Both the position numbers and the translations under genes were made by a program. DNA of 63,913 nt, the filler included, from Collodictyon triciliatum (Eukaryota): NCBI GenBank assembly GCA_043381765.1. It is 10 parts of 10 records of this genome, joined end to end, with 100 filler letters (N's around TTAATTAATTAA, not from the genome) between each part and the next. Parts side by side here need not be neighbours in the genome. Positions count along the whole stretch, not along the records: positions 13,886 to 20,701 come from JBHJMP010004207.1; 9 more parts are not named here. One strand, 5' to 3'. The notes under the pieces were generated by a model. The model was not told the DNA's origin. It worked only from the letters and a program-made list of their open reading frames with translations, and did not search any database. This document shows positions 462 to 56,884 of the stretch, piece by piece (within the stretch, counting starts at the first letter, position 1; the number at the start of each line of letters is the position of its first letter).

Positions 462-3400
462 TTAATTTTCCTTCTCTAACCAATCCCCAAAGAAGTTTCC
501 AGCGACAGATTCAGTGCTATCAAAGGAGCGGAGCAGTCTTTCGTTGAATTTGGTCAGATTCCTTGCATTTTTTGTAATTATTGCAACACCTTCTCTTGTT
601 CTTGGGTTGTAAAGACGTATTTTTCTATTATCAGGCCTGCTTGTACGAATGAAATCTGTCACATCTATCTTGATTTTAGTTTCATCGGAACCCGAAGTAG
701 TTAGTGGGGCAAAATCCCTACCGATAAAATGTTTTCTTTTGGACGTGTTTTCTTCTGGAGTTTGTAGGCTGCACCAGGCATTCTCTTCAACTAAATCCCA
801 AACTCGTATTGTTCTATCATCGGCCCCTGACACAAGCCATTTTTCTCCATTCGGCCCGCGCGTGCTACAAATACTTCTGACCCAATTCGTATGGCCTTCT
901 AGCACCATGAGTTGATCTCCAGTGACTAAATCCCATATCCTTATTACACCGTCTTTACTTCCAGATGCCAACCATTTCTCCCCATTTGGCCCATCGATGT
1001 TGCACACACTAAGGATAAATTCATTTAGATTGTTCTCCAACAGTTTGATTTGATTGCCACTGGCCATGTCCCAGACGCGTATGGTTTCATCTTCTCCCCC
1101 TGATACTAGCCATTTTTCGTCATCAGGTCCATCGATACCACAAATACACATAACGGGTTTAGTGTGTCCCTCTAAAATTTTAATTTGGCCACGACAGGCG
1201 AAGTCCCAAATGCGAATTGTTTTATCTCCACTTGCTGACGCTAACCATGTTTGCCCTTCTGGTCCTTGAGTAATGCAAAGGCTAGTAATTATGTTTGTAT
1301 GGCCTTCAAACTTATACAGTTCTTTGGCAGAGAACATGTCGCAAATATAAATTGAATTATCATCACTTCCATATGCAAGCCATTTTTGTTCTTTCGGTCT
1401 TGGAATAATGCATATGCTTGTGATGTAGCTCCCGCGATTTTCAAACTGAAGGATTTGGGTTCCAGAAATGATGTCCCAGATACGTGCTGTGCCATCGTCA
1501 CTCCCTGATACCAGACAATATTCTCCATTCGGTCCTCGAGTGCTACAAATGCATGTTATGTCGTTGGTGTGACCCACTAATACCTTGACTTGCTCTCCAC
1601 TAGCTGAATCCCATATTCGAATTGTTCTGTCTATACTCGCAGAGGCTAACAAAATGTCTTCCTTTAGTCCCTGGATGCTACAGACACCAGTGACTGAACT
1701 TATATGACCCTCGAAGATTTTAAATTGGATTCCTATTTTGACATTTTCCATATCAGCCTCGTTGAAATTACAGTCGTAAAGAATTGAATTCGAGAAATCA
1801 ACATCTTTTAGCTGTGCATGAGAGAAATTGGTTCCATCAGCGACTGATTTACGAAGATTTGCCCCAGGGATCTTTATGTAAGACAGGTCCATATCACTAA
1901 ATGATACCCCCATAAAATTCAGAAGACTGATTGCCTCATATGCAGCGCTTGGTTTTTCATCTGCAGTCCTGGATAAGTAAACAATCTCAAACAGATATTC
2001 AATTATTTGTGGACGATTCCAGGTTTGGTCGAATTTCGCATGAGTAAGATTATCACTAATAAACTCTTGAACTTTTAAAAACTTAACAGGTTCATTATCT
2101 TCATCTCTTGAGTAATTTGATAAGTATTCACATGCATTCAGAGATAGATTGTGAATACGCCCGAGCGTGTCAACGAATTTGTCCTTCATTTCTTCCCAGA
2201 ATTCATTGGCTTCATGAAAGAGTCCGAGTCTTCGATATATCACGTCTAATCTCTCACAAGCTATCCAAACATCCCAGTTCTTGTAGTTTGAATTCTCAGC
2301 CCTTCTTGATATTAATGTCTTATAAAGTTGTATGACTATATTATACTCATTTTCTTCTAGCATAATTTTAATAATCGAAATAATTTGGTGCATGTTTGTC
2401 AATGACATGGAAGTTTTTGTTTCTTTTCGAATAGTAGCGGCCTCTTTGAAGCATTCCTTCAGTTGTGCATAACTAATTGAAGAATACAATTAGTCAGTTT
2501 TTATTAGAAACAAATGCAAACAGGGTTACCAATATAAATAAATATAAACAAAAATTAAAATAAGTAAAATTAATGAAAGATAGAGTTAACCTTCTGAGCT
2601 CAAAATTTGTCCTCCCGATATTTTCGAGAGAAGTTGCGTAATCAACATGTTTTTTCCCTAAGGTTCTCTCACGAATTTCTAGTACTTTTAAGTAAGCATT
2701 CAAGGCTGATCTATAACTATATAATAATATTTTAATAGATGGTCAGTTACAAGTTCTGAAATATAAGATACATATTAAGATTGTAAACCCATGTCAATTT
2801 GATAAAATGAAGGATAAAAAAATGGAAGGAAAGAAAGAAAGAAAGAAAGAAAGAAAAGAAAAGAAAAGAAAAAAAGAAAGAGGAAAAAAGGAAAAAAGGA
2901 AAAAGGGAAAAAAGGAAAAAAGGAAAAAAGGAAAAAAGGAAAAAAGGATAGAGGAAAGAGGAAAAGAAAAAGAAAAGTACTCATTAACATCGTGATGGAT
3001 ATTTCCAGCTATTTCATAGCTATCCATGACATTCTGATGATTTTCACCAACGCTTGTGATGTGAATATCCAATGACTGAGTAATTAATGATAAAGCCTCC
3101 ATCTTCCTAGAATGATTGAAAGAACGAAATTAGAAACTAATAAATTTATACTTCTATTCATAAGGTGGTATTTTGATATCTATTGTGTATTACTTCTTGT
3201 TAGCGAGGTGAACTTCAGCCATCAATTGCATAGTCCCCGCTACAGAAGGGTGCTGGCTTCCTAAAAATTTAGTGAGAATCCTCTTCGCTTCCTCGTAATT
3301 ATGCATCGCTTCCTCAAATCTGCTCGGGTTTATTTAAATATTTTAAAAAAAAAAGTCACAGTAACTCCATGTATACCCCAATTCTATTTATCTGTCAGGT

Positions 3401-6400
3401 ATTTAGAAAGAATAAAAATCATAAGAACCGTTTCATGGCTAGATATGCGCGTCCAAAGTTTTGGTATGATGTCGCGATAATAGGGTGTTCATTTCCTACT
3501 ACCTTCAAGCGTGAATCATATGCTTTTCTATAATATTCCATGGCTTCGGCGCTAATTGCACAATGTAAAAGTTTTTTTTTTTTAGTAACATCAGGATATA
3601 ATTATCAACTTGGTAGAATTGCCTACGCAGATTCCATCAGCGAGATGTCTCCAAATCGGTCATATGATTGAGCCACTTGAATATTATTAGCATCCACGTT
3701 CTTTATGAACCGTTCAAGTGATTTTTCATATTCTCTGGTAGCATCATCATGCCTGGAATAAATTGATAAGATCAGATAAAATAATAAATACAAGCATTGA
3801 TTTTGTTGGGCGGATTGCAAGGAATATAAAAGCTCATTAGCATAATTACTTCTTTGTTTGTTGATAAATGAATCCTATTTCATCGTGTATGATTGCAATT
3901 TTAACACCATCGGCTTCTGTTTTTTCAGTCACCTCCAGGCACTTCTGAAAATACGCCATGGATTCATTCCAACTAATTAATTGTTAATTAAATGGTTAAT
4001 ACATAAATAGTTGCATATTTCCTTCTATTGCGTATATACTTATTTTTTCATACTTTTTTAAGTTTTTGTAGACTCGACCAAGAGCCAAGTAATCTGAAGC
4101 TTTGGATTCTGTCATACTACATTTTAGAATCGAGTGTATTGCTCAATAATTGTTCAAGAGCCTTACCCTCAGTTTGTCTATTTTGAATTCTTTTGATCAG
4201 GGCAGACGTCAGAAAAGAATTCTCATACGATTCCAAAAAGAAGTCAACAAGTAAATCTCCTACTTGGTCGGTAGACTGAAGAAAAATCGATGAATAAGGA
4301 AATGCATCTTTATTATTATTATTAGTATTATTATTATTAGACTTTACATTTATGAGTGATGCATATATGTTCTTGTAATTTGCTATTTTCCTCTGATTAA
4401 TAGCCCTCCAAGACGAAAAGAATTCATAACGATAACGCCCACCAAGCATTTTTAAAATAACCTATTTTTAAGATAAAATTTGAAAATAATTGATGTCATG
4501 AGTTTATTTCCCATTTTAAACATCTCGCCCGAAACTACCCTAATCCAGATTCTAATGTTACAATTTTTTGGTTTTATTTAATATATCTAATTAAAAATAT
4601 GTGGGATGAAAAAAAATTGCGAATATTACATGCTTTTGCTTGATAAATTCAACCAGCAAATCAAATGATTGTCCTTCAAGGAGTTGATAAGATATTTCAG
4701 CTGCCAGCTCTTCATCTATACTCTCCTTATCAGAATACTTTCCAAATAACCATTTTCCGAACTGTTGATGTACTTTTATTTTGTCTGCATCCTTCAAGAA
4801 TTCTTCTTTTACTGTATCCGAAAGCAATTGGTGCAGATACATATACCTGCGTTATATATAATTTGGTACCATGTTCAATCATTTGCATCAACAAAAGATA
4901 AAGGAATGATAAAAGTGGACTAACCTTCCATTTCTGACAAAGAGGTAATCAACCAGTGTGAAGAAAAAGGACTTCCTGGATTGATCGATGCACAATTGAA
5001 GCATTTAGGCATGACTCTCTTTTGACTACAACTCATATATAAAATCCTAGTTAAAGCAGAGGTATGTATCTATATTAATTCAAACCATTCTGCGAGGTCG
5101 AATTCTTGTCCAATCGAATCTTTCACATAAGAGTCCAAATCGCTTTCACTTAGACCGATACGAGAAATTAAAAGAATTTTCATAGACACTGCAACAAACG
5201 AGGCACCTGGTAGTCCATACAGATACATAATTTGAAATATATCGAGGTAAGTATATGTTTTGATTAGCAATAATGGACCATAAAATTACAGCTATTTTAT
5301 GAGGAGATGACGCGATACCTTCTTTATCATATTTTTTAATCCAACGTCGTATCACAGTGGTATATAATTCTACTACCCCATTTGTCGATAATAATCCCTT
5401 TAATTCTTCATTTAAGCTATCATAAACACCAAACACTCTGATCTCGTCCAAGATGATACGTAAATATAGAGGATGACCTGGTACAGAGTAATTTTGAAGT
5501 TAAATATATGCACACAAATATAGGGAGAGGACAATATTATTAATTAGTTGCCTGTATCTGCGTAGTCTTCAAGTATCATATTAATTTGAGCTTCATCCAG
5601 GGCTTTGTCATATATTTTCAAAAAATTTTCAACTCCTAATCTAACTTCTTCACGTTTTAATTGTGAGACAGATAATATATCTAATCCATTTTGAGTAGCA
5701 ACCTATTGTTTTAAATAAAATGGAATTGCCAATATATTTATTACTGTATTAATAATCATCCATCTGTTCATTTCCACACAATTTTATTGATATTTCGATG
5801 TTCATTTACATCTCATCCATAGACGATTAGAACGCACCTGGCATGATTCATGGTTTTCGATAGTTGAAATGACTACTGCAACATTTTTTGGTGTTTTATC
5901 AGGTAACCAGGTAAGCAAATGTGGTGCGGAGGTCCCTTGCGATGGGGATATTTGGTTTATTGCGTCGATGAGGAAAACAAATTTTTCAGGTCTGTAAATT
6001 AAGGTGTGCTAAGTGGATATTGATACAATGTTTCAAGATATTTATAAAGAAAATTGTGTATAAAATTGTAGTGACTTATTGCTTCGTTGTAACATTGTAA
6101 ACAATCCACGCAGGCCCTCTTTTTCATATTCTATTTGTAACAAAAAAAAATTAAGGCTGTCTTAGCCACCATCAGCGTATTTAAAAACAGCAGTATAAAA
6201 GTGATATTGTAATATTTTATTTTATTTTATTTTTACCAATTTCATATTTTTTCTCCCCCATAAAGTGACTCAGTTTTGTGACTGAACTCCAAAATCGAAT
6301 TGAAATACTAGATTTCATTCCATTTTGAAAAAATGTTTAATCATACTGCGATATGTGGAATACAATTCAAGACATTTTTGTTACCTCTCAACATATGTGC

Positions 6401-6563
6401 TAAGATTTGTACAGCCGACAAAGTGAAATAGTATGTTTAACTCAGGGTCATTCAATTTTTCTAAATTATTAGATGTCGCAGCCATCAAGGATGATTTCCC
6501 TATGCCAGATTGCGCAGCAAGAACAGTAATTTTGCAGGATCCACTGCTTAACTGGTTCTTTAT
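462..6563 (-). CDS. Multi-exon STAND/NACHT NTPase (TEP1/NPHP3/NWD-like) with a TPR array, pentapeptide repeats and C-terminal WD40 repeats; 5' end missing (scaffold end)
   Basis: Hand-spliced exons give Walker A 'VLAAQSGIGKSSLMA' followed by 'ILFHFVG' (~6390-6563), Walker B 'FVFLIDAINQI...LTWLPDKTPKNVAVVIST' (~5860-5990) and 'GHPLYLRIILDEIRVFGVY'. Six TPR exons lie at 2591-3972. The 2011-nt last exon (2472-462) has 'IPGANL...TNFSHAQLKDVDFSNSIL' and about 7 'EGHT...WL.SG..D.TIRIWD' WD40 repeats. Confidence 0.85.
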
Positions 6564-6748
6564 CTGAAATAATTATTCCTTTTGTTATTATATTATATGA
6601 CAGTGAATGCTCAAGTTAACCAAGACCTAAACTCCTATCTTGGAAAAAAATCGAAAAGAAAAGAAAAAGAGAGAGAGAATATTGAGAGTTGGCGAGTCGT
6701 GGTACTGTCATCAACATCTCTGATTTTTACAAACGGATAGGGAAAGAA

Positions 6749-6843: not shown

Positions 6844-6943
6844 NNNNNNNNNNNNNNNNNNNNNNNNNNNNNNNNNNNNNNNNNNNNTTAATTAATTAAN
6901 NNNNNNNNNNNNNNNNNNNNNNNNNNNNNNNNNNNNNNNNNNN
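6844..6943. other. Artificial scaffold spacer N44-TTAATTAATTAA-N44 (first of nine; others start at 13786, 20702, 27644, 34580, 41514, 48449, 55383 and 62317)
   Basis: An identical 100-nt unit with stop codons in all six frames recurs every ~6.93 kb. Confidence 0.97.
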
Positions 6944-12256: not shown

Positions 12257-13133
12257 GGGACCACGTTTTGTATCAAAGGCCCAGAGGCATTCAGGTCATA
12301 TCCCAGCCCAAACACCCAGTCGCAATAAACAACCAAAGAAAGCAAGACTTGGAACAGAGCAAACAAACAAGCAAACAAGCAAACAAGCAAACAAGCAAAC
12401 AAACAAACAAACAAACAAACAAACAAACAAACAAACAAACAAACAAACGCCCAAAAACAATTGGGTCTACGAATGCACAATTATGGAATTTATACTAGAG
12501 ATAATTCAATGTGCAAATTTGCGTTTNNNNNNNNNNNNNNNNNNNNNNNNNNNNNNNNNNNNNNNNNNNNNNNNNNNNNNNNNNNNNNNNNNNNNNNNNN
12601 NNNNNNNNNNNNNNNNNNNNNNNNNNNNNNNNNNNNNNNNNNNNNNNNNNNNNNNNNNNNNNNNNNNNNNNNNNNNNNNNNNNNNNNNNNNNNNNNNNNN
12701 NNNNNNNNNNNNNNNNNNNNNNNNNNNNNNNNNNNNNNNNNNNNNNNNNNNNNNNNNNNNNNNNNNNNNNNNNNNNNNNNNNNNNNNNNNNNNNNNNNNN
12801 NNNNNNNNNNNNNNNNNNNNNNNNNNNNNNNNNNNNNNNNNNNNNNNNNNNNNNNNNNNNNNNNNNNNNNNNNNNNNNNNNNNNNNNNNNNNNNNNNNNN
12901 NNNNNNNNNNNNNNNNNNNNNNNNNNNNNNNNNNNNNNNNNNNNNNNNNNNNNNNNNNNNNNNNNNNNNNNNNNNNNNNNNNNNNNNNNNNNNNNNNNNN
13001 NNNNNNNNNNNNNNNNNNNNNNNNNNNNNNNNNNNNNNNNNNNNNNCTTGCAGAGCGCGAGTGGATCAAAGAAAAGAACTTGAATGGCCATAAAAGGAGA
13101 GAGATGGGGAGCGGCTCATAAACCAAAATGAAT

Positions 13134-13206
13134 CGCCCGGTGTGGGGGTCGAACCCACGACATTCAGGTTAAAAGCCTGACGCTCTACCGACTGAGCTAA
13201 CCGGGC
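13134..13206 (-). tRNA. tRNA-Lys (anticodon UUU)
   Basis: Reverse complement GCCCGGTTAGCTCAGTCGGTAGAGCGTCAGGCTTTTAACCTGAATGTCGTGGGTTCGACCCCCACACCGGGCG forms a full cloverleaf with loop CTTTTAA. A TTTT run lies downstream. Confidence 0.96.
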
Positions 13207-13885
13207 TTGACATATCGTTATATGGAAACTAATATAATAGAATACATAAAATGATAATTTGGGTTTCCTGTCTTGTTCGTTTAACTTTTGATTCGCATAG
13301 ATAAATGTAAGTTAAGTGCTTCCTTGCACTTCTATACGGTTGTAAGCATCATTATAAATTTGAATATCGTGTATTTGTGCGTACAGTCTGATCTAATTAG
13401 ACTTTAAGAGACTAAAACTATAAATTCCGCAAATATCAAAGACCACACAGGCCTGTTCTTTTCTTTCTTTTTCTCTTTCCTTACGCATTCGATTTGCGTT
13501 GCTTGGAGAAATGGTTGTTGTGAAGAGCCAAAGTCTGTGTGTATGGGATGCGGAAAAGATCGACCACCAAGTGAATGGAAAAGATAAAGACACACGGGAC
13601 GTGTTGCGTGGGTCGATCGGCGATTATCCTGCCGAGAGTGTTTGATCAACACAGCAAACAAGAGCAAAGCAAAGCCACTGGTATGTCCTTTCTCAAAGTC
13701 TGTGCAGTAGGTTCTCTTGCCAACTCGGAGACTTTCTACTCTGAAAGGGTTCGGCGCAGCAGAGACGATGGGAAAAGCTGCTCGGNNNNNNNNNNNNNNN
13801 NNNNNNNNNNNNNNNNNNNNNNNNNNNNNTTAATTAATTAANNNNNNNNNNNNNNNNNNNNNNNNNNNNNNNNNNNNNNNNNNNN

Positions 13886-16042: not shown

Positions 16043-17041
16043 CGAGCAGACTGAGCTGTGTTTTTGTGTCAACTCTTGAAATGCTCCATTACGTTTTTAC
16101 GTTATTTCCATAGTCTACTTTTACGTATAAACCACTTTTCATCGCTGTACTTGTCCAGAGACTCACCATGTTGCACGATCGCCTCCGGCCAGGTGCGGTT
16201 GTCTGTCGTCTTACGCTGTTGGTGCTATTTTTATTTTACTTGTTTTGTTTTGTTTTGTTTTGTTTTGTTTTGTTTTGTTTTGTTTTGTTTTGTTTTGTTT
16301 TGTTTTGTTTTGTTTTGTTTTGTTTTGTTTTAGAATGTGTGGTGGCGGTTTCGCAGAATATTGCAGAGATATCACGATCGCAGTTTTTCGGGTACAATTG
16401 CAGCACAAGCTGAAAGGCACAGCAATTAGAAAAAAAATAATTAATCTCATGCAGATGTTATTTCTATTGCCGTAAATTGAAGCATACAGTCACTCCGTGC
16501 GTAAGTTATCTGATTAACATATAATTTTTATATATTCCACAAAAAATAAATTTCTTCCAATCTTGTGTTTATGTATTATTTGCACGCACCCACATTGTGA
16601 TTTTTAAGTTGTCAATACACCATTTCAGTAAGTTGGCCTTAGCCAAACAACACCAAAATTTTGACTTTGTCATTTCGAAAAACAGAACGATCAACAAAGA
16701 GACAAGCATCTCATCACCAAAGTCTGTCAAACCGCCCAGCCCACCCGTATAAATAACTTGGGCGTGACCAATCCATCGCAATAGCTACAAATCTATCAAA
16801 AAAATAAAAGAATTAACAAACAAACAAATAAATAAAAAGCCTATCTATAATTATAAGGCGACAAGGCGTCACCGATCACTGGCAAAGCGTTGACACTATT
16901 ACCACACGAACAAACAAACAAACAAACAAACAAACAAACAAACAAACAAACAAACAAACAAACAAACAAACAAACAAACAAACAAACAAACAAACAAACA
17001 AACAAACGTTCCAATAGACAGACACATACGGAGAGTCAAAC

Positions 17042-20000
17042 ATGTCGGACATCGCACCCATTTGCGAGCTGGCAAACATCGGCGAGTGGCGCATGCGACG
17101 CAAGACAGAGCTCATTCTCACTGGGAAAAAGATATCGGAGATCCCAGATGCCCTCGGCAATGTCACCAACCTGCAAGTCATCAAGTTTGCAGAAAACGAG
17201 GTTTTTTTTCAAAACACACAAGTATTTTTTTATGGCCACAACTACATCTTGATCATTTGAGTTTTACGTACAAAGTAGTTTTAGGTTCCAGCCTCGATGT
17301 GAAGTGATCGAGTATAGAACACGGCAAATGCATTTAACCCCATTTATTTTACTGCATTGAGACTTCTATCTTTACTTTTAGCTTAGTCAAATTCCTGCGA
17401 CGATAGGCAGTCTGACAAACCTTTCCGTCCTTGTATTTCAAGGAAACAAGGTGTGTATTTGGTCCCATCCTATTCATCATCATTTGCATTCTATGAACGT
17501 TTTTTTTTTTCAATCGCAAAGCAGGGGTAAAGCTTTGTGATTTCTTCGTCATATATTCTCCAAAACTACGGGTTGCTATGTGCTAAAAGAACGATTCTTT
17601 ATGAATGTCTATTATACTATTAAAATGAATTTATTTTCTTTGATTTACCGATCAGCTCATCGACTTGCCCGAGACCATTAGCCTTCTCACACGGCTTATT
17701 CATGTGGACTTGTCAAAAAACCAAGTATGTTGACATAGCGTACCTCAGCATTATATATCCAAACGGTTTAGCGGTCAAGCTGCTGCTTACAAAACCCAAC
17801 AATGAATACATATAATTGTGTTGTGAATGTTTTTTTTGAATAAATAGTTCTCTGTCATCCCCTTCTGTCTGCTATCGCTCGGTGGAATTCAAGTGGTTAG
17901 ATTATCGGCAAACAAAGTAATTATATTTCCCTACAGTATTAATTTCACTTTATCATAAAAATATTTTGATATTTAACATAATCGAAATGAGTTTTTTTTT
18001 ATTCATGTAGAGGAATATTTTGTGTCATTCATCCTATTCTATCCACGAACAAAAAAAAAAAAAGATTTCTGAGATTCCACGGACCTTGGATCGTTGGAGT
18101 AAATTAGTTTCATTGACTCTCGACCAGAATGAGGTTAAATTATGTCGATTAATTTTCTTAAATTGATTTGGTATTTCTTTCTTTTCGTTCTTTCTTTATA
18201 ACTAAAACCACTTTTTCCTGGTAGACAATATAAGATAACTAAACCCTTTTGATGATTTTTTTCTGAAATCAGATTAATGATATACCTGATGAGCTGTTCT
18301 ACAACACCACTATTGAGGAACTCAGTCTAGCTCAAAATAAGGTAGCTATAATGCGCGTAATTTCATTTTTCTCTATCCTAGTGTTGCTGAGTTCACAAAT
18401 GGAAAATAGATCTTCTATACAACAAAGCAACTGCAAAGACTTCACAAGTTACAAAAGCTTAATCTTAGCTTTAACCAAGTAATTTCCTCTCTGACGTACT
18501 ATATATTTGAAATATCAACTTTTTCAACAAAAATTATTTATGGTCATTCATTTTAAAAAAAAAAACCACGATAGCTCGTTGCATTTCCTGATGCCATCCA
18601 ACACCTATCAAATATCACGGAACTCAATTTGTCGAATAATCAGGTAAAAAAAAAGCGGACAAACGCATGCTAATTAGCCTGTCATCCTCGATAATTCGCC
18701 TCTAAATATACACGCACAATTTCCTCTAAAATTAGATTATCGATATTCCCTTCTTTATGAGCAATCACGTCAGTCTCAGGAATGTCAATCTATCAAAAAA
18801 TGAGGTAATCACCACACGATTCATACTTTTCATGCACAGTTCTCTCAAGAGTGTAAATCTAAAAAAGAAGGAGTCACACCATCCCAGTTTTAATTACCTC
18901 CTCCTTTCTATAACTCACAATTTAAGGTAGAAGGAAACAAAAAGACAAACAAAAATCAATCAACAAAACATTATATAATAAATTACCATTAGATATCGTT
19001 CGTCCCAGAGTTCTTGGGATTTGCCACCAAATTGGTTGTTCTAGAACTTTCCGAAAACAAGACCAATAGCATCCCAGACTCTATGCTTAGCCTAACGTGC
19101 TACAAAAAGAATCGAGCCTTGAGGCGTATGACTGTTCGTGGGGCAACTATAGATGATATCATCATTTACGGACGAGAAGATCGATGGGAGGATGTTCGAC
19201 GTTTAAGTCTTGTAGCTAACATCGGAGAGGGCTCAGCCGGTCTTCGCAAGCTACTCAGCATTGTTCATTTGGAGGAGCGACTGAAAGTCTGTAAAGGAAT
19301 CAGCGACACGTTCATGCTGGAGACGGGAGAGAGCCAACGTTTGATAAGCGAGGCGCAACTGATGCTCCGAGCAGCCAGTCAGGAGGTTGAAAAGAGCGGG
19401 CCGATTCTGACCGACCTTCGTCGCCAGCTTAAGGAAAACGAAGTTGCCACAGATACTGCAGTTGCCCGCAAACGCCAAACAGAAATCGCCACACGCACTG
19501 CACAAACAGACCGAGCGCGTTTTGCAGGTTTAACTCAAAGCGCACAGACCTTAGTGTCCTCTGTGCAATCACGAGACCTGAGAATCCAGGGTCGTCTTGC
19601 TGGACGCAACGTGGGTGCAGAAGTCTTTACACCAGACGCCGTGACCGAAACTCTCCAAGCTATCTGCCTGCCTGAACCTATTCCATCCGCAACTCTGCTA
19701 ACACACCGCATAGATGGGCCTGCTTGTGTGCGTCTCGACGACCCGCTTGTATTGGAGCTGCTCATGACACCTGTTGGACTTGCAGGACAGTCTCAATCAC
19801 AACAACAGCCGCAATCGCAATCAGCGCAAACCAAGGCATCAACCCTGCCTTTCGGGTCCTGCATTCGCCTTGCTTATCTAGCGCAATGTTTCCGCGAACC
19901 AGAGACGCTCAACAGGCTCATTCCTCTCACCCGACTGGGCATGGCGACAATCCAAGCAGGGTCTCTTCAACCGTCTTCTTCTGCACAGTCTACGCCTGCA

Positions 20001-20258
20001 TCGTGGAATCTCCAGGCGGTTGTTGATTGGCTTGTTATCTGCGACCTGACGCATTGGGTGCCCTTCTTTGTAGCCAACCGCCTGTCTGGCCCTCTTCTCC
20101 CCTTCTTCCACAGCCTCCTGACGAATGAAGAGCGCCCTTTCTCGTGGGACCAATGCCCGCTTCCCTCCATCACCGAAGACGACAAAGCTCGTCTGCTTCA
20201 GTCACTTGCAGCCCTAGACTTGTCTGCTGCGTCTGCCTCTGCATCATCGTATGCTTAG
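17042..20258 (+). CDS. Leucine-rich-repeat protein (about 10 LRRs) with coiled coil and two degenerate SAM-like domains; 10 exons
   Basis: Exon 1 is 17042-17200. Eight 69-nt phase-0 exons each encode one 'I..IP..L..L..L..L.LS.N.' unit. The last exon (18993-20258) has a heptad-rich segment and SAM-like 'FTPDAVTETLQAI...HRIDGPACVRL' and 'SWNLQAVVDWL..CDLTHWVPFFVANRLSGPLL'. Confidence 0.85.
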
Positions 20259-20617
20259 GCATTCTCAGACACGGAGGAGACCTGCGGCACAGACCACCCA
20301 AACCCTGCTCGTGCTCCCTCCCGTACTCTCCCCTTTGTTTATGTCTTTGTTGCTGTCATTTTCTTTGTCTTTTTCAGCTTCTTTTTGTGGACAGGCGAGG
20401 CACATAATAAAGCAGGGCAGAACATTCCAATAATGCAATATGTTTGTGTGCGTATGGAGTCCCTGCCGAGTAACTTGCTCCTGCCCGCATGCAGCGTGCA
20501 GTTTTCCCCCTTTTTTTCCCTTTTTTTGCTTTTTTTGTTTTTTGTTTTTTTTGTTTTTTTCCCGTTTTTTTCTTTTCCTTTCTTTTTTTTTGTTTGTACG
20601 TTTTTTTGCTTTTTTTG

Positions 20618-20701
<84 letters not shown>

Positions 20702-20970
20702 NNNNNNNNNNNNNNNNNNNNNNNNNNNNNNNNNNNNNNNNNNNNTTAATTAATTAANNNNNNNNNNNNNNNNNNNNNNNNNNNNNNNNNNNNNNNNNNN
20801 NCTTCTTTTTCTTCTTCTTTTTCTTCTTCTTTTTCTTCTTTTTCTTCTTCTTTTTCTTCTTCTTTTTCTTCTTTTTCTTCTTCTTTTTCTTCTTTTTCTT
20901 CTCTGCCCCATAACCAGTATGTATGATTCCTTTCTTCTGAATTGTTGAAGATGTATTAATGTTCTCTCAG

Positions 20971-31328: not shown

Positions 31329-31878
31329 CATGTATGTATGTATGTATGTATGTATGTATGTATGTATGTATGTATGTATGTATGTATGTATGTATGTATG
31401 TATGTATGTATGTATGTATGTATGTATGTATGTATGTATGTATNNNNNNNNNNNNNNNNNNNNNNNNNNNNNNNNNNNNNNNNNNNNNNNNNNNNNNNNN
31501 NNNNNNNNNNNNNNNNNNNNNNNNNNNNNNNNNNNNNNNNNNNNNNNNNNNNNNNNNNNNNNNNNNNNNNNNNNNNNNNNNNNNNNNNNNNNNNNNNNNN
31601 NNNNNNNNNNNNNNNNNNNNNNNNNNNNNNNNNNNNNNNNNNNNNNNNNNNNNNNNNNNNNNNNNNNNNNNNNGTATGTATGTATGTATGTATGTATGTA
31701 TGTATGTATGTATGTATGTATGTATGTATGTATGTATGTATGTATGTATGTATGTATGTATGTATGTGTATGTATAAGTAGTGAATGAATGAATGAATGA
31801 ATGAATGAATGAATGAATGAATGAATGGATGGGTGGATGGGTGGATGGGTGGATGGGTGGATGGGTGGATGGATGGAT
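31329..31878 (+). repeat. Compound microsatellite (TATG)n - gap - (TATG)n (GAAT)n (GGAT/GGGT)n
   Basis: Seen directly in the sequence. Confidence 0.95.
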
Positions 31879-34932: not shown

Positions 34933-37900
34933 ATGCAGACATCAGACACAAACACCAAAGCATGGGGATTATTGGAGGCCAAAATCGACTCCCTGAAGTC
35001 TCTTGAGCTAACAGGAGAGGTTTGTCAAAGCCATTGATTACATATTTTTATGTTCAACTCCGCTTACAATTCATTACTTTTTGGCAGTCTGTCTTGACGA
35101 TGGGGCGGAGCACTGAATGCCACCCAGATTTCACGTTTCCATCGGTAAAGAAGATCAGTCAAGTGCACTGCACGGTTTTCAGAAAGCAAAGCGAAGACGG
35201 AAAAACATATACATTTCTAGAGGATAAAAGGTTCACGCTTGGGTCTTTCCAAACGACCTTATTTGCTTTCCTATTCTCGTGCAACAAAACAAAAGTTCAT
35301 CATACGTTCCTGAGGCCAGCTCCCAGACATATTGTTTGTAAATACGCTTTGAGGACTGATTTCTATTGAAATAGCTCGAATGGAACATTCGTAAATGGGA
35401 AGCGTGTTGGGAAAGGAATACTGTATTCGCTAAAGGACGGTGATTACATCTCCCTCACTTTGACAAAGAATGCAGATTACTCAGATGGTTTGTCACATCT
35501 ATTTTATTCCTGCTTCAAAATTTTCATTCTTGTGGCCATGAGGAAGAATTTAGTGCCAATATTTCTCCATCACAATTCATTTGGGGTTTTATTCTTCATC
35601 CGCAATATGCAACAAGTACAGCTGCGGTACTCTACAAGTTCCAAGACTTGACTCTTCCAAAGAAGCCAATTGAGCGCTACGACTCCAATGCAACCGAACC
35701 TGATGTTTGATTTCTAAATATGAGATTCAAGAGACCTGAATATTTGTGTACCTTATTCTCGATTTCTGTGTAATTTCTTTTAAAATGAATATGATTCCCA
35801 CACTGGGTTGAAAATGTAAACAGATTGTCTTTGACCATTTAAAACACCACTAGAGCGACACAGCAACAGAGCCGCTAGATGAACAGTCGGTAGGCGCAAC
35901 AGAACAAGTGTGCAATTCTTTTTCTTGCTTTTTATATAGTACCACAGAAGAATATTTTACCATAATGCGCTTCAGAGAATCGTTCTATCTTCCATTTTGA
36001 ATTTATGTCTTAATTTCATTGTTTAATGGTCCTTTATCTCTTACCTTTCAACTGCCGTAGGACGGGGCACGAGCTGTGAACCTCCCTGAGGCACAATCGC
36101 CTTGTGTTGAGGAAAATCTATGCGAACCAAAGACAGAGCCAAAAAGTGTTCCAAAGTCAGATTTAGATGAGAGCAACATAACAGAAGCAAAATCAAGTAC
36201 CACAACCGAAGTAAAAGCAGAAACCAAAGCAGAAACCAAAGCAGAAACCAAAGCAGAAACCAAAGCAGAAACCAAAGCAGAAACCAAAGCAGAAACCAAA
36301 GTCGAATCCAAGCCTGTGGCTGAGAGCTCAGTAAGCTAATAAGTTTCATATTTATGATTGCTATTAATGTGGAGCTTTATCATTAATTTTTATTTTCCCC
36401 AGTCCACTGATATCGAAGCTGAAATCACTTGTGGCATCTGTTTCGAAGTCCTGTATGGCTAATCTCATTCCATTTTCTTCTTCCTGTCTCTTTTTCTTTT
36501 TCTCTTCTACCTTTTTTCTTTTTTAAGTATTACCTATATTCTCAATCATTTACCTCCCATTGAGAAAAGTGTAACTGAGGCAGTATTCATCCGAATGGTT
36601 TACTATCGTATTTTCTTTTCATATTTTTGCTGTTTTCTAGCAACCTTGCTATTTTCTCATGAAAAAGAATCGCTACCAATCGTTACGCTTTTTTTTTTAT
36701 TACCAAATACAGATATCGCTGTGTTAGTTGCATTCCATGTTTACACAATTTCTGCTCTCCCTGCTTTTCTGATTGGATGATAAAGGGGAACACGTGTCCA
36801 GAGTGTCGTGTTCGCGTTAAAGAGGTATGCGTTTGTTTTGGCAATTATGTTGAAAGGCGCAAACGATGTCAGTTTTCTGTTTCCTCGGTGGGATGTTTTG
36901 ATACATGCCATCGAATATCAACCACATCAACTCTGCTTTTATGTCCTACCATTTCTCAGGTTCAAAGAAATCATGCAATCGCAAATATTGTCGACCGTTT
37001 CCTTGTGGCCAATCCAAGTCGCGCGCCAACGGAGGAAAATAAGAAGCAAATGGATTCTAGGGACAAAATAACATCGGATCATGTTTGTAGCATTCATTCT
37101 AAATTATTATTTACAAATCTTCGACACCATTTCTTCCACCAATTTTACTCTAACATCCACTATGTCTTTTTATTTTTATTATTATTCCTTGCTCGCTCAA
37201 GCCTTTTCATAAGAGCCACTAAATTATACTATATAAAGTTCAAATTGGAAAAGAAGAGGAAAAGGCGGTATAATTATGATGAAGATGACGAAGATGAGGA
37301 TGAAGACGAGTACGAAGATGAAGACGACGACGATGACGAAGGGGGTCACCAGCCGTTCAGACCACCATTCTTTGGATTTCTTAACCAGGCCACGGTGAAA
37401 TGTAGAGAGTGCACCGTACCAGGTTTGTTGCTTCGCTCAATGCATTTCCTCTTCAATTTCGTTATATGATGTCGTGTAGTTGCTCTGAATGAATAGTTTT
37501 TTGTCATGTTTTTGAGCGTGAGTGTTCCTAACCACTTTCGTCGCAACCACCTGACAGGAAAAGATGGGTTTCAATGTCCTCCTGTGAATCCTCTGCACTT
37601 AAATTGTGCAGTAAGCCATATTTAATTTAGTGCTCCCCATTCTTTCACATTTTCTGATAACCACAAAAAGTATTCTGCAAGTCAAACCTCTTCCACTAGA
37701 TCATAGTTACTTTTTTGTTGCATGATTTAACATGTACTTCATCTCACCCACTTGCTCCTCTCATTTCTGCTGGAATAATTTTGAAATTAGAACGCTTGTA
37801 CAACTCCTTATCATATACTGTCTCTGTAGTTCTGCCAAGGGTTGATGCCAAACCGCCCGGATAATGCAATAGCTCAAAGATGTAGCATTCTTAATTTTTT

Positions 37901-39590: not shown

Positions 39591-39923
39591 CAATCCATCA
39601 TACCAATTACGATTTCCACCAAAATAGGAAATAGCACGACGAAACACTGTTGAGTTATCCACATAAAGACACCGTTAATTCCAGCTTTGTTTGATTGACA
39701 TTCGGTGCGAATGCGGCGATCCGATCGAGCAGATTTTTNNNNNNNNNNNNNNNNNNNNNNNNNNNNNNNNNNNNNNNNNNNNNNNNNNNNNNNNNNNNNN
39801 NNNNNNNNNNNNNNNNNNNNNNNNNNNNNNNNNNNNNNNNNNNNNNNNNNNNNNNNNNNNNNNNNNNNNNNNNNNNNNNNNNNNNNNNNNNNNNNNNNNN
39901 NNNNNNNNNNNNNNNNNNNNNNN

Positions 39924-41273: not shown

Positions 41274-41739
41274 CTTATCTCGCACTCAATAGAAAATATT
41301 TTACCAACGTCTTTTTTTTTTTTAATTATCGTTCGATTTTTAATATTTCTTTGAAAAAAGGGCGACGAAGCAACCAGCACCTGAAACAAAACCTCTCCCA
41401 TCGTTCTTCTTCATCTATAACCCAGCCATTAATGTGGAAGCTGACACCACGGTAACCAACTCTTTCTTTTTTTAAAAAAAACAAAAAAACAAAAAAACAA
41501 AAAAACAAAAAAANNNNNNNNNNNNNNNNNNNNNNNNNNNNNNNNNNNNNNNNNNNNTTAATTAATTAANNNNNNNNNNNNNNNNNNNNNNNNNNNNNNN
41601 NNNNNNNNNNNNNCTTTGCTTTGCTTTACTTTACTTTACTTTACTTTACTTTACTTTACTTTACTTTACTTTACTTTACTTTACTTTACTTTACTTTACT
41701 TTACTTTACTTCCGACACAGACCACTCCCCAGCCAAGGA

Positions 41740-44700
41740 ATGGATCCGCGGAGACAGTCTGGCCCAGCTTTTTCGCCTGCCAACTCGCGTCTGAGTGTCA
41801 ACTCCGACCGCTCGCAAAACTGGACACCGCATGACCGCCCAACAAACACATACGAACTTGCCCTAACCATCATGGTCACAACCGACCAGATTGCACTCAA
41901 CTCATGGATGCTTCGTGCAGAGGAGCTCATCACTATGTTTGAGAACCAGCACGAACCCCACCTTGCCATCGAAATCCTCTTCCTCCTGACTGCTCGCAAG
42001 AACGTGGCCACTCGTGTGGCCATTGCGCTGGAAAAGTACATTCGTAAAAACCTTGTCCGTGACTTGGACTTTCTCCTGAGCATGAGCCTTGTCCTTGAGT
42101 CGATTCCTCTGATTGAACTCCAACCAGCATCGCACCAGTATCTATTCCAGTGCTTTCTGGCTCTCACTTCCAACATTGTCCACGACACATACACGTGTGA
42201 TGAGCATCGCCTCATGGTTGTTGCCTGCATGATGGAATCTCTCATCGATGCAAAAATCACTTGCACTTTCGACCCGAATTATGCTGAAAGTCTCTCCATC
42301 CTGCAGAGCATGGGCAATAATGAGAAGGACATATCCTTGTCCAGCGCAGCCTCTTTCATTGAGGAACTCATCAAGCGTATCCATCAGCCCATCACAGCCG
42401 GTGGTAATCCGCGCCTTAGCACAAGCTCGAGCATTCATCCTGCCACAACAAGAACTTCTATATCAAGGACTTCTATCTCAAGAAACTCCATCTCTGGCTT
42501 GTCTGCTTTTCCTTTCGGAGAACAGACCGTTGCCCGCAGAATGAGCTCCATGTTCTCTGGTCGCTCAAGAGACATGACCCAGACCGCAGAGTGGTTCACC
42601 CTCTATTCTGAAATTCGTGAAGCCTATCATACCCGCCCGGATGGATTCCTTGAAATTCTGATTGCCAAAGAAACTAGCAAGGACTGGGAGAAGAAGGCGA
42701 AGAGCTTTCGTGAAGGAATTATGTTCTTTTATGCAAACATGTTGCGGTTCTTCATCCGTGTATTCAATCGGACAAGATGTGAAAACGCCCGTAGCTTGAT
42801 TCAGCAAATCACTCTGAAAAAATACTATCGAGATAGCGAACCAATGAAAAGATTCTTTTTTGTTCATCTGGAGCCACTAGTCCGCGACCCAGATGATACC
42901 ACGAGGCGCATCTTTTCTCAAGCCCTTGCCCCTTGTGCAGATTCTCGTAATAGTGTGAAATCTCACCGTCCAGACATATTTACCCAATCAAAGTACCAAT
43001 CTATCAACAACCTAAAAGACCAGTTCAACTTTGCCATGTTTCAAGGTTCTAAAGACCAAGGACAAGTGGTTATTGATTTTGTGTATGGACTGCGCGACCA
43101 TATTGTCAAATTACATAATTACTCTTACTTCCGCGCTACGTGTGCTGACCGGTACAAAGAGATCCCTGTTTCTGGCTCCCCTCATTCCCCCATCCCATCA
43201 CGCTTACTGGATTGGAAGGACCGTATCAGCAGGTTCATGTCCTCCAAGTCTCTGAAGTACCTGATTATTGGGGGTTCTTCAGGGATAGGCAAAACAACCC
43301 TTGCTACGAGCTTGTTCTTACAAGAGCTGATAAACTGGAACGAGTCTAATCACTTCCCATTATATTTCAACTCATTTGCAAAAACCTTCCTGAGAGGAGA
43401 AGAATTTCCCCTGTTTGACGAGGCCTGGTACCATCCATTCAAATACCACCTCTATCTTACGGACGAATACATCCTTCCAAAAGCTTTAATATACTGGTGT
43501 CAATCAAATTTCAAAACACTGTTTATTGTTGATGGTATGACATCGAAGGACATCATGGCTGATAACTTCTTTACAAAATATTCCACCTCTCAGTGGGCCC
43601 AATCCAAGTTTATATTCCTTGTGCGTTCAGAGTCTGAAGAGCAATTTGTATCCATGTCTGACCATTTCATCTTTAATTCGGGCACTCAGCCTACTGAGCC
43701 TATCGAAACGGTCGACCATGTCTATATTCCGCCCTTCAATCACACCGAGATTATAAAATATGCCGAAGCACAAATCGCAGTTCGGCAAGGTGTTGAGTTT
43801 GGCTCATCCGAATTTCAACTTGTTTGCGATGCTGTTTCAAAATCCCCATTCTATTCGATATTTATGAATTCTCCATTTTGGTTGAGCGCTCTGCTGTCCA
43901 TTCCAAGCAATATACTCTCTGCAACGTATTCTCAAGATGATGATTCTTCTGAATCCTTTAGTCTGACCGAAATGTATCTCATCGAGCAGTATGCAAGAGC
44001 CGAATTTGCAAAATACATTCTCCAAGACCTACCTGAAGGGAGCGAACCCAGCAATCTGGAAGCAAGTATCGATGCCTTTTTCCAGTACCACCAAGATGTT
44101 GCATATGTTATGTTCCAAGACAACCGCGCGCCGATATACTCAGACAAATCCGAGAAGGCATCGGTCTCTGAAGCAAATGAAAATTTGAAAAAATATTTTA
44201 CTACCAGTATTTTTGACCAATCTTCAAGAAATATCGACTCTTTCATTTCTAAAGCTGATCACTCTACCTTTGTGTTTCAGAACTCTATCTGGTATTTTTT
44301 CATCGCATCAAAGATATCAAAATTGATTGTTGCGGGTGACCTTGCATGTCTTTTGAATCCCCTTCCTGAGAAGGTACTCGAGTATCTCTCCAAAATGGCC
44401 CATGATGGCTCCCCCTTACGAGGCAAAATCATCGAGTCATTACAAAACCCTACCACTCGCAGAGATAAAATTGGTCCTATTCTTCTATTGATTCTTGCCC
44501 ATTCTAAGATTCCTATATCAAACATAAATCTAACTGGGATGGACGTTGGGAAGCTTGACTTGGACCGATATTCTTTTGAAAATGTGAATCTCTCAGGCTC
44601 CTCTGCTGCATCCCGATTCACCCGCATGCATCTGAGAGGCTGCAATCTAAACTCTTTTCGCTTTACATTGGCTTCGATGGACTGGTTTCCTGCTCTCCCC

Positions 44701-47760: not shown

Positions 47761-47834
47761 CGACCACGGCAGGACTCGAACCTGCAATCGCCTGATTCGT
47801 AGTCAGGCGCCTTATCCAATTGGGCCACGCGGCC
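47761..47834 (-). tRNA. tRNA-Arg (anticodon ACG)
   Basis: Reverse complement GGCCGCGTGGCCCAATTGGATAAGGCGCCTGACTACGAATCAGGCGATTGCAGGTTCGAGTCCTGCCGTGGTCG, with anticodon arm CCTGA-CTACGAA-TCAGG. Confidence 0.96.
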
Positions 47835-49415: not shown

Positions 49416-52400
49416 TTATTTCTTTGTTTTGAGTCTCGGTTTCGCATTCGTCGATGGGGCTACAACTTTCTTCTTGTTTCTGTTGCGGTTCTTGACATTT
49501 GCCGTGGCGTAGTAGTGGACTCCAACCTTCTTTTTGTTTGTTGTCTTTCGCTAAGGAAAAAAAAAATTAAATAAATTGGATATGTTTTGCGATAAAAAAA
49601 ATACGTATTTTTTTCTGGAAGAGACATTATTGAAGTGTGCAATTGTGGGTGGGGAAAATACCTTCTCTTTTCCATTTGCCTCGACATCCTCCGACGCACT
49701 ATCTTCTCCGCTTTGACTTTCGTCCGCACTCACCTTCGTCTTGGGTTTGGACTTCCACTGTGACTTTGGGCTTTTACTTTCTGGCTCTTCAGCGGCTTCC
49801 TTCTTTGTCTGTGTATGAGTTTGCAAGTTTGTGAGCGTTTGGTTAATGTCACACAGAGCTGCGTCATAGTGCCGCGTCAAAAGGAATTCATGCTTTGCGC
49901 GATAGAAACATGAATGAATTCAAGCAATAAAAATCAACGAAGAAAGCAAGGGTCATGTCTCCAAAAGGGTAATTATAAAAACGATGGGGGGTAACCTTTT
50001 TCTCGCTTATTTTAGATTTCTTCGATGGGAATAAGGCAGCTCTCTGTGCGTGCGATTCTATTATATGTCAAACAGCACAGTTAAGTCATACATAATGTTG
50101 TAAGCCATATTCTCTTATGATTAGGTAGCAAATAGCCTTACCGTCGGTGAGCTCTCTCTTGGAAGAACTTTTGTGTGTATTACATACGAAATAAATGGTA
50201 GGGGAAAATTGTCAGGGTTAGAGGCACATTATAGCTTCTTTTTTATTTTATTTTAGAAGATATAAAAAAAATCACGAATAAATTTCTGTTTAAAATGTGA
50301 CATGTATTAGAAATAACGTCAGAGTGCCCCAGTCGTTTGAAAATATTTGCTCAAAAAGAAAAGAGAAATAGTTTCGCACCTTTTGTCACCCTTGGTCGGC
50401 GTTTCAGCTTTGCCTTTTTCTGCTGAATTAACTTTTGTCGATTTCGTTGGTAATAATGATTTTCCTTCCTGTTTCTTTGTCGTTGATGAATCATCTCCGT
50501 CATCTGGTGATTCAGACCCATTCACGAGTTCGTCCCAAGATAAACCAATCTCATTTTCATGTGCATCGTCTGCCTCCTCCTCCTCCTCTTCATTTTCCTC
50601 ACCATCATCCTCTCCATCCTCGTCTTCGACTTCCTTTTTTTCTTCACTTGCATTCTCTAGTGCCTTTTTTGGTCGCACTGCTGTCTTTTCTTCTTCGTCA
50701 TTTTCATTTTCGTCATCACCTCCCTCTAGGAAATAAAAAGAAAATTCAGTATTTGAATATAGGTATGAATTGTATTAGATAATTTAGAACAAACCAGTAA
50801 AATATATATGCATGGATAAAAGAAAACAATACCATTTTTTCCCTCTGGACCTTCACTATCATCACTTTCTAAAGTTCAAATATACACAAGTTATATGGTG
50901 TTTTTTTTTTTAAAAAAAAAATAAATTAATTTAAAAGCCGAATCTGGGGCAGAAAACTCTCATTATGAAGTATCAATCCAACTACATGAAAATAATATTA
51001 TATTTCGAAAAAAATAATCCGCACCAGGGTCACTCTTATATACGTCATCCCAGTCAATGGCGTTTTCATCTCCCAAATCAACTTCAGAAAGTCCCTCAGG
51101 AGCTCTTGTGTCATCTTGGTCATATTCAACACGCACATGGATATTTCTAATTTGTTGTGTAATCTGCAATCCTTCGGTCTAAGAGAATTTCACATTAACA
51201 AGGCTTATACTCCATCGCATATCGATTATATGCATAATACGTATACCAAATTACACAGACAAGAGAAGGAGGGTGTTATCGTCTCATATAGGCCATATCC
51301 TTTCAGAAAGTAATGATATTTTCTTACATCAGCAGCTTCACTGGGCTGAATTGAATCACCAGCCATCGGAGGCATTGTAAAGTACGGAATTCGACCCCTC
51401 TGCATATCAGCAAGCACAATTTTCGCACACGATTTTGTATCAGGCTCCCCGCCCTAATCATCATCAATATGTATAATTATATTTACAAACAAATAAACAG
51501 GAACAAAAAAAAATGCACTTTGATCTATTATATGCTTAAGTGAGCCTTTAAATTTTACATATTTTTGAATGCAATACACGGAAGAAAGAAATCTAACTTT
51601 AAGCAATCTGCCAGAAACTTTGCAGATTTGCTCCAGAAAATCAGTCGCGTCCTTCCATTCTTCGATTTTGTATGTGCGCCTTTACATGATGAGGCAAAAG
51701 ATTTTAAAACATGTCATTTAAAACAAAATGTGTGCTTTGAATAGGACCAAAGATAGTATTTTATCTTCCTACTGAAGATAATCCTTTTTGACTCGTTTTA
51801 AAACCTCAGGAATATAGTCTTCGGGTGTTTGTAGATTCTCAATTCTCACCTTTGGAATGAGTGAAAATCAGATGATCAAGTATCATATTTATAATCAATA
51901 TTCGCTACCAATCTGAATATATATGTATACATATATGCAGCCACTTACCACCCCTTTTAGGACAATATCAGCCTCGGAGTCTCCTGAAGGATAAACCACT
52001 CCAGGACAATCGATCAAGTATATTCTCTTAAACAGGGTGATGTATTGCCACACCTGAAAAATAGATAAGAATTATATTGGAGAGGAAATGAGTACATGAT
52101 TTGACTCCTAAATTGAAACGACGGTTGCTGTGCCAAGACACTCTTTAAAAGAAAATAAATGGCTTTCACTACCATGGAGTATATTTGAAATCATTTTAGC
52201 ATACAGAGGTTTGAAATGAAAGCATAAAATAGTTGCCTTTGTCTCTCCGGGTATGGGTGCCACTTTGCAGACTTTCTTCTTTCGAAGAGTATTGATAACT
52301 GAGCTTTTTCCGACTGCAGAGATGTGAGCATGAGATATTTTGATCACTGGTCATAGCTTTAATGCTTTATCATTCTCTCCTCTTTTTTCTCGTAATACCT

Positions 52401-56410: not shown

Positions 56411-56884
56411 AGTTCCGGGCGAAGTCAAACCGCCTGCCAACACACACACACATGCTCGGAAGNNNNNNNNNNNNNNNNNNNNNNNNNNNNNNNNNNNNNN
56501 NNNNNNNNNNNNNNNNNNNNNNNNNNNNNNNNNNNNNNNNNNNNNNNNNNNNNNNNNNNNNNNNNNNNNNNNNNNNNNNNNNNNNNNNNNNNNNNNNNNN
56601 NNNNNNNNNNNNNNNNNNNNNNNNNNNNNNNNNNNNNNNNNNNNNNNNNNNNNNNNNNNNNNNNNNNNNNNNNNNNNNNNNNNNNNNNNNNNNNNNNNNN
56701 NNNNNNNNNNNNNNNNNNNNNNNNNNNNNNNNNNNNNNNNNNNNNNNNNNNNNNNNNNNNNNNNNNNNNNNNNNNNNNNNNNNNNNNNNNNNNNNNNNNN
56801 NNNNNNNNNNNNNNNNNNNNNNNNNNNNNNNNNNNNNNNNNTTTTTTGGAAGGAAACGAAATAAAAGGCGCTTGACAATAAGGG

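Follow-up and report, generated by a model that had tools for sequence, protein, structure and literature searches.

The window examined here, a stretch of 63,913 nucleotides joined from ten parts of the genome of Collodictyon triciliatum (GCA_043381765.1), carries on its plus strand a gene for a protein composed of leucine-rich repeats (LRRs), a long predicted helix and a predicted C-terminal SAM domain. The gene lies within JBHJMP010004207.1 at positions 17042-20258 of the window, starts with an ATG at 17042, is intron-rich, and yields a spliced product of 658 aa whose 11 LRRs belong to the ROCO/SHOC2-like class, with 23 residues per repeat. The start is closely preceded by an (AACA)n microsatellite with 24.8 perfect copies (16909-17007), and a T-rich run of ~180 nt (20521-20701) lies downstream of the 3' untranslated region (UTR).

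All eight intervals that the initial annotation had read as LRR exons were exactly 69 nt long, preceded by AG, followed by GT and open in frame 0, and each encoded one 23-residue LRR in 23 codons. Their coordinates, borders and frame were thus confirmed, as was the single 1.27-kb exon placed after them (18993-20258), which measures 1266 nt including the TAG, encodes 421 aa and opens with a tenth full LRR. The annotation had further placed a common cut after "LS.N."; the shared register held in all eight exons, each of which closes with Asn-x (x = K, Q or E), whereas the literal LS.N. was found in only five of the eight. Since the cut after exon 1 (17042-17200, 53 aa) keeps the register of the 69-nt exons and the boundary between LRR 10 and LRR 11 is uncut, a phase-0 intron stands at the identical place in nine of the ten repeat boundaries; under uniform placement, nine introns would share a single position of a 69-nt period with a probability of ~2e-15. 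The introns were 68-205 nt long with a G+C content of 0.22-0.37, compared with 0.49 in the exons, and eight of the nine held an in-frame stop. An open 69-nt interval between AG and GT is by itself meaningless because such intervals are common in the window: a census of 69-nt exons, restricted to the window, counted 71 candidates on the plus strand and 55 on the minus strand, against 61 and 55 for the neighbouring length of 66 nt and 67 and 75 for that of 72 nt. Among the open 69-nt candidates of the window, an LRR motif occurred only in the nine that lie in the LRR gene.

Transcript contigs agreed with this model. In run X1, which is labelled RNA only by guess, one spliced contig of 1881 nt extended over all ten exons, and nine of nine introns were removed at the borders read from the genomic sequence, all of them GT..AG. 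Two X1 contigs opened with 20-21 loose letters, which we take to be the end of a template-switching complementary DNA (cDNA) primer. Three of the exon joints were seen independently in X5, a freshwater metatranscriptome, in which the 18 letters of a loose end at 17916 were those of the start of the next exon; runs X4 and X6 covered only the 3' end of the gene. The runs that held parts of the gene were mostly labelled freshwater metagenomes or metatranscriptomes, with the gene at small shares. The gene is real, transcribed and spliced exactly as read. The exon skipping that the initial annotation proposed to look for was not seen: no transcript contig held a skipped form and only the full form appeared, in assembled contigs from which rare variants are dropped. 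The features of the gene and of the second modular gene of the window are collected in Table 1.

Table 1. Positions, strand and supporting evidence of features in the window; X1 and X5 denote sequencing runs and HMM a hidden Markov model.
Feature	Position	Strand	Evidence
Exon 1, coding part (53 aa): conserved 30-residue head and LRR 1	17042-17200	+	joint 17200/17382 in X1 contig; homologue alignment
69-nt phase-0 exon, LRR 2	17382-17450	+	translation, X1 contig, repeat HMM
69-nt phase-0 exon, LRR 3	17656-17724	+	translation, X1 contig, X5 joint, repeat HMM
69-nt phase-0 exon, LRR 4	17848-17916	+	translation, X1 contig, X5 joint, repeat HMM
69-nt phase-0 exon, LRR 5	18065-18133	+	translation, X1 contig, repeat HMM
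69-nt phase-0 exon, LRR 6	18273-18341	+	translation, X1 contig, repeat HMM
69-nt phase-0 exon, LRR 7, most degenerate (without Pro at position 5)	18410-18478	+	translation, X1 contig, repeat comparison, repeat HMM
69-nt phase-0 exon, LRR 8	18575-18643	+	translation, X1 contig, repeat HMM
69-nt phase-0 exon, LRR 9	18736-18804	+	translation, X1 contig, X5 joint to last exon, repeat HMM
Start of last exon: LRR 10 (18993-19061) and terminal cap-like LRR 11 (19062-19130), no intron between	18993-19130	+	translation, repeat comparison, repeat HMM
Long predicted helix, possible coiled coil (last-exon product residues 93-204, protein residues 330-441)	19269-19604	+	AlphaFold2
Helical stretch with Q/S-rich insert (about 19776-19847)	19605-19985	+	alignment, AlphaFold2
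Predicted C-terminal SAM domain (protein residues about 569-647)	19986-20222	+	PDB profile, fold model and fold searches, P0003 near Pfam cut-offs
TAG stop, inside transcript contigs; 3' UTR to at least 20300	20256-20258	+	translation, transcript contigs
P-loop exon of NTPase-TPR-WD40 gene	6381-6572	-	weak AAA_16 and RsgA matches
126-nt exons of the same gene, one 42-aa TPR each	3627-3752, 3194-3319, 2981-3106, 2591-2716	-	TPR_12/TPR_10 matches
Last exon of NTPase-TPR-WD40 gene: pentapeptide repeats and WD40	462-2489	-	

Relatives of the protein were sought with the 421-aa last-exon product (the tail), and whole-protein comparisons were made through the homologues that it recovered. An exhaustive single-sequence HMMER search of 1.84 billion representative proteins gave 11 matches at E ≤ 0.001, two of which covered the tail, namely P0001 (624 aa, E 5e-55) and P0003 (617 aa, E 1e-11), both full-length Trinity transcripts of Diphylleia rotans in EukProt. 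The other nine were confined to the first 35-65 tail residues, that is to the LRRs, and consisted of six LRR-Roc-COR (ROCO) proteins, one F-box LRR protein, one pentapeptide-LRR protein and one protein with LRRs only. A word-indexed search with the tail found no homologue, the same search with the P0001 tail returned only P0001 itself, and a tail-profile search among longer proteins added nothing to P0001 and P0003. A scan of metagenome contigs with the family alignment produced 222 pattern matches, none of which was confirmed, and the conserved head motif, sought as a degenerate DNA pattern, had no match in such contigs.

The whole architecture is common to the window protein, P0001 and P0003, with overall identities of 41% (window-P0001), 28.5% (window-P0003) and 29% (P0001-P0003). 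This suggests kinship between the organism of the window and Diphylleia, a freshwater protist. The 30-residue head (ICxLAxIGEWRMxRKTEL) is 73% identical in every pair, with 22 of 30 residues shared between the window protein and each Diphylleia homologue, and no signal-peptide-like or hydrophobic head was visible by eye in the translation. Identity to P0001 amounted to 73% in the head, 46% in the LRR part, 38% in the helix, 23% in the stretch before the SAM domain and 41% in the SAM domain, making the LRR part the best-conserved large part of the protein. The family is lineage-restricted, and its domain combination appears to be new; the design of its gene is known. A literature phrase search for the LRR-SAM combination found none, in a search that was narrow and is no proof that the architecture is unpublished; an LRR-helix-SAM protein without RING seems to be undescribed.

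The repeats are tandem units within the 20-30 residues typical of LRR proteins and follow LxxLxLxxN; the ten full 23-residue units have Asn at position 22 in 10 of 10 cases and Leu, Ile, Val or Phe at the scaffold positions, and in the colinear homologues Pfam LRR_8 was matched at E 6.7e-28 (P0001) and 5.4e-31 (P0003). The LRR regions of the three proteins can be aligned gap-free, with repeat number and order the same. When all 11 repeats of the window protein were compared with those of P0001, positional pairs shared 10.8 of 23 residues and other pairs 6.1, and the positional counterpart was the unique best match for seven of the 11. For the ten full repeats of this pair the diagonal sum was 105, compared with 70.6 ± 6.4 when the order was permuted, and 0 of 100000 order permutations reached 105; the observed values were reached by 264 of 100000 permutations for window-P0003 and by 0 of 100000 for P0001-P0003. 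Because of this positional correspondence, the array is taken to predate the split between P0001 and P0003, the two paralogues.

Within the gene, by comparison, repeats share on average 6.2 of 23 residues (~27%) and at most 10. No direct DNA repeats linking exons or introns were found, there being only three chance-like pairs of 14-18 nt. A repeat-unit HMM, built from the 30 full repeats of the three proteins and run on 2978 six-frame open fragments of the window, recovered, partly by construction, all 10 units already known (E ≤ 5e-6). As to relic or antisense LRR exons, the next match in all frames of the window had E 0.12 and lay far from the gene (50459-50515), and the best in the introns had E 11. 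At the concave-face x positions (five per LxxLxLxxN) positional repeats of the window protein and P0001 were 32% identical compared with 15% for other repeats, a value reached by 12 of 20000 permutations, and the corresponding figures with P0003 were 30% and 14%. Between the window and the X1 transcript, exons 1-9 (711 nt) had two listed substitutions, with one further "other letter" in the piece table, and the 1266-nt last exon had 33, as judged from one contig; the changed codons from that same contig comprised 14 synonymous and 18 not. In the helix region, over 34 nt (19346-19379), X1 also differs by three paired one-base deletions and insertions that shift and then restore the frame, which may be real allelic variation or contig or assembly noise.

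Pfam searches with the 421-aa tail and with its pieces gave nothing significant, and sub-threshold matches of the helix to Perilipin, DotZ and AATF were taken as helical noise. An AlphaFold2 model of the whole tail from the three-sequence alignment had a mean predicted local distance difference test (pLDDT) of 46.5 and a predicted template modelling score (pTM) of 0.23, too poor for a fold search; it contained one helix at residues 93-204, followed by two groups of short helices, with block-mean pLDDT of 59-82 over residues 81-170 and about 50 thereafter. A crude heptad count was equivocal, and from the model a coiled coil is plausible for the long helix.

The evidence for a SAM domain came from both profile and fold comparisons. 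Against PDB, the three-sequence tail profile matched Liprin-beta-1 (E 3.4e-7), the Neurabin-1 SAM domain (2.5e-5) and the CNK2 SAM domain (0.012), followed by Sfmbt, SHANK2, STIM1, BAR, SARM1 and Scm at E 0.2-1.5; 11 of the 16 matches listed were SAM proteins and five were arylsulfatases at E 1.8, all on profile positions 91-143. P0003 fell just below the Pfam cut-offs for SAM_1 (21.4 bits, cut-off 23) and SAM_2 (20.3 bits, cut-off 20.5), and its tail alone matched Pfam SAM at E 5e-5. A second model, of tail residues 205-421, reached a block-mean pLDDT of 64-85 over model residues 131-210 in the best of five models, in keeping with the ~70-residue five-helix bundle of solved SAM domains. In VIA-align searches against 48161 chains its first match was the tandem SAM structure of SARM1 (Z 7.7, root-mean-square deviation 2.7, 79 residues), and the best 25 rows (Z 7.7-5.0), on model residues 118-217, were all SAM-domain entries or SAM-containing proteins. 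Foldseek ranked the same SAM domains highest, though none at E ≤ 0.001 (lowest E 0.19, probability 0.98-0.99, template modelling score 0.76 on the Shank2 SAM domain). Embedding matches in the ESM Atlas served only as a lead, the whole tail recovering only LRR clusters (0.83-0.85) and tail residues 200-421 several SAM clusters at 0.79-0.84, below the lead level of 0.9. A Z below 8 is weak alone, and we assign one C-terminal SAM domain, which the predictions indicate to be genuine, because the sequence profile and the fold searches agree.

The initial annotation had spoken of SAM domains in the plural, and here the single C-terminal domain and a long predicted helix were recovered while the second SAM domain was not. 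The stretch before the SAM domain did not match the SAM part (hhalign probability 0.2), had 0 matches to solved chains on profile positions 1-90 and modelled with pLDDT below 50 in both models, so that only one SAM domain is supported; its Q/S-rich insert is absent from both Diphylleia homologues. Pfam revealed no RING or zinc-finger family in the last-exon product, and no Roc, Ras or COR domain in the tail that would place the protein among the ROCO proteins. The lack of a RING domain implies that the protein would have no ligase activity of its own.

A gene of this design has counterparts elsewhere. ROCO genes of brown algae encode one LRR per exon and are reported to undergo shuffling and alternative splicing (PMC3341825, PMC11378527), the introns and antisense strands of Ectocarpus ROCO loci contain further LRR exons, either intact or inactivated (PMC3341825), and LRR-ROCO exons of the brown algae Ectocarpus and Saccharina are 72 nt long and in phase 2 (PMC11378527). 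The window gene resembles these in that each LRR has its own short, frame-preserving exon of constant length, in the 23-24-residue class of its LRRs, and in that its LRR-only matches were mostly ROCO proteins (6/9). It differs in that its exons are 69 nt in phase 0 and are cut after N-x, rather than 72 nt in phase 2 and cut after N-x-L-x, in that a helix and SAM domain follow the LRRs in place of Roc-COR, and in having none of the signs of shuffling or recent exon exchange, that is near-identical exons, relic or antisense exons, or scrambled paralogy. The LRR-kinases of Ectocarpus also have modular LRR exons, yet no shuffling is reported for them (PMC3341825), and the window gene fits this category.

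In human LRR genes, exon lengths peak at 69-75 bp, each LRR exon of NOD/NLRC genes encodes a single 28-aa LRR, and the exons of NLRP genes measure 171 bp; like the window gene, they have frame-preserving, repeat-length exons cut at a constant place, and exon 5 of NLRP3 is skipped in a major isoform (PMC6642158). They belong to another protein family and organism, and unlike NLRP3 the window gene showed no skipped form in its contigs. The gonadotropin receptors likewise have one LRR per frame-preserving exon (cited in PMC11378527). Tetrahymena LRR genes are reported to consist of arrays of 90-bp exons in phase 2 and form huge, fast-evolving, species-specific families by clonal expansion (PMC6564038); they share with the window gene exactly equal-length LRR exons and one uniform intron phase, whereas here a single gene has 69-bp phase-0 exons in an old, conserved array.

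At the protein level, a family profile of the LRR columns from the two Diphylleia homologues matched SHOC2 chains at E ~4e-67 and LRRD1 at 2.5e-82, and SHOC2 and the other Ras-group LRR scaffolds are, like the array described here, cytosolic solenoids of 23-residue repeats. SHOC2 comprises about 20 repeats and is not known to carry a SAM tail. The resemblance to SHOC2 is one of repeat class and not of orthology.

We consider it probable, at about 60%, that the gene is constitutively spliced and encodes a cytosolic scaffold or adaptor of LRR-helix-SAM type, from a lineage-restricted family whose only relatives found are the two D. rotans transcripts. The concave face of the fixed 11-repeat solenoid would bind a conserved partner, as its pattern of conservation suggests, and the helix, the SAM domain or both could provide self-association, or recruitment into a larger assembly or docking, in keeping with the common roles of SAM domains and long helices. 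The exon-per-repeat pattern would then be the fossil of an ancient duplication of a 69-nt exon together with its intron, kept by an intron-rich genome and probably not a working module-swapping device. Several points weigh against this view. Rare skipped isoforms would escape assembled contigs; two STAND-like NTPase genes that carry repeat sensors lie in the same window, company that might suit an immune-type sensor; the window tail itself has no Pfam SAM match even at E ≤ 10 and so none at the curated cut-off; an alignment of three sequences underlies the helix and SAM models, and the other four of the five models of the SAM part had a mean pLDDT of only 36.6-41.9; and exon duplication is the assumed origin of the pattern, with parallel intron gain at an N-x/L site a live alternative.

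The initial annotation proposed a sensor in which the LRR exons are exchangeable modules coupled to SAM output. The eight exons are indeed symmetric (0-0) and equal in length, so that both frame and repeat register would survive if any one were skipped or duplicated; a SAM domain is present, a one-repeat-per-exon design recurs in the NTPase-TPR-WD40 gene of the window, a second STAND-like gene accompanies it, and the brown-algal ROCO genes, whose 72-nt exons each hold one LRR, are reported to shuffle and splice alternatively (PMC3341825, PMC11378527). Against this, repeat number and order are the same in two Diphylleia homologues that are only 29-41% identical, the repeats are old and dissimilar, with neither similar exon pairs nor DNA repeats nor the relic and antisense LRR exons that are signatures in Ectocarpus, conservation rather than diversification marks both the LRR part and its concave face, only full-length splice forms were seen in the contigs, and the modular LRR exons of Ectocarpus LRR-kinases are reported to show no shuffling (PMC3341825). 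An ordinary binding scaffold is likelier than a sensor with swappable modules because the repeat array is old and fixed, and we regard the exchangeable sensor as quite unlikely. Being the apparent kin of phagotrophic protists, and with STAND-like genes in the same window, the organism might instead possess a RING-less counterpart of LRSAM1, whose LRRs would recognize microbial patterns, such as those of prey or of bacteria inside the cell, and whose SAM domain or helix would recruit a separate ubiquitin ligase or the autophagy machinery. LRSAM1 consists of LRRs, two coiled coils, a SAM domain and a RING E3 ligase domain (PMC8567218), and the order of LRRs, helical or coiled-coil region and SAM domain is the same in the window protein. 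The window protein, however, has no RING in Pfam searches of a tail whose frame stops at a TAG contained in transcripts, and outside the LRRs the exhaustive single-sequence search of the tail returned only the two Diphylleia proteins and no relation to LRSAM1. It also has more repeats, 11 compared with about six in LRSAM1, and its conserved concave face fits a fixed endogenous partner at least as well as a microbial one. We regard such a counterpart as improbable.

An alternative that leaves the function of the protein unchanged concerns only the origin of its exons, with the nine in-register introns gained independently at a recurring proto-splice site, N-[KQE]/[LIF] (the slash marking the intron). 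The upstream exon ends with AG in six of nine cases and with AA in three, giving a recurring site at the same repeat position; the introns, of 68 to 205 nt, have no detectable similarity to one another; the tenth repeat boundary has the same codons and no intron; and the genome looks intron-rich, other genes of the window also having short exons. Nine gains that agree in phase and position, while the rest of the 711 nt gained none, are, however, less economical than a single duplicated unit, and similarity among introns would have decayed anyway, since the repeats themselves are only ~27% identical. Equal-length symmetric exons are also stated to be the usual mark of exon duplication (PMC3341825). 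We hold independent gain to be unlikely, if the least so of the alternatives, and prefer an ancient duplication of the 69-nt exon. An improbable extension is that the LRR gene and the NTPase TPR gene belong to a genome-wide, immune-like repertoire of one-repeat-per-exon genes that arose independently of that in brown algae, in which conditional skipping of 69-nt exons would retune binding and the SAM domain would make a polymerizing adaptor with a logic like that of SARM1 or LRSAM1.

The gene provides a very clean, transcript-verified congruence of exons and repeats, with nine introns in one register and eight exons of exactly 69 nt, in a deep-branching protist lineage that has almost no genomic description. 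It indicates that a one-repeat-per-exon design can persist unchanged over long divergence without exon exchange, and it cautions that modular exons do not by themselves point to a diversifying sensor. With its combination of LRRs, helix and SAM domain, the protein may represent a scaffold specific to this lineage; apart from its exon design and domain combination, this is an ordinary protein-coding gene.

Elsewhere in the window, a gene on the minus strand (462-6572) looks like a STAND-type NTPase with repeat sensors. Its modular design, noted in the initial annotation as a parallel with a different repeat family, was verified: each 126-nt exon begins with one base of a split codon and encodes one 42-aa TPR, a one-TPR-per-exon design like that of the NB-ARC-TPR genes of Ectocarpus and the brown-algal family to which they belong. 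The second STAND-like NTPase of the window is a single open frame of 1831 aa on the plus strand (41566-47061), with weak NACHT and nSTAND3 P-loop matches at about residue 565 and a WD40 propeller at ~1050-1425. An open frame at 36663-37469 on the plus strand, 16 kb from the LRR gene along the joined window, had a sub-threshold to borderline RING match (zf-C3HC4, 22.3 bits, cut-off 21). Pfam searches of the short open frames at 13.9-27.3 kb gave nothing usable.

Two tRNA genes, for Lys-TTT (13134-13206) and Arg-ACG (47761-47834), were called on the minus strand by both tools. An 85-nt "tRNA-Stop" with anticodon TTA (61024-61108, minus strand) was called by ARAGORN alone, without Rfam support, and is probably a false call. 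Paired runs of 44 N with 12 bases between them recur every ~6.94 kb (6844-6943, 13786-13885, 20702-20801 and onward), one pair lying within the poly-T just 3' of the LRR gene, and larger N runs occupy 12527-13046, 31444-31673, 39739-39923 and 56463-56841; these runs look like masks and not biology.

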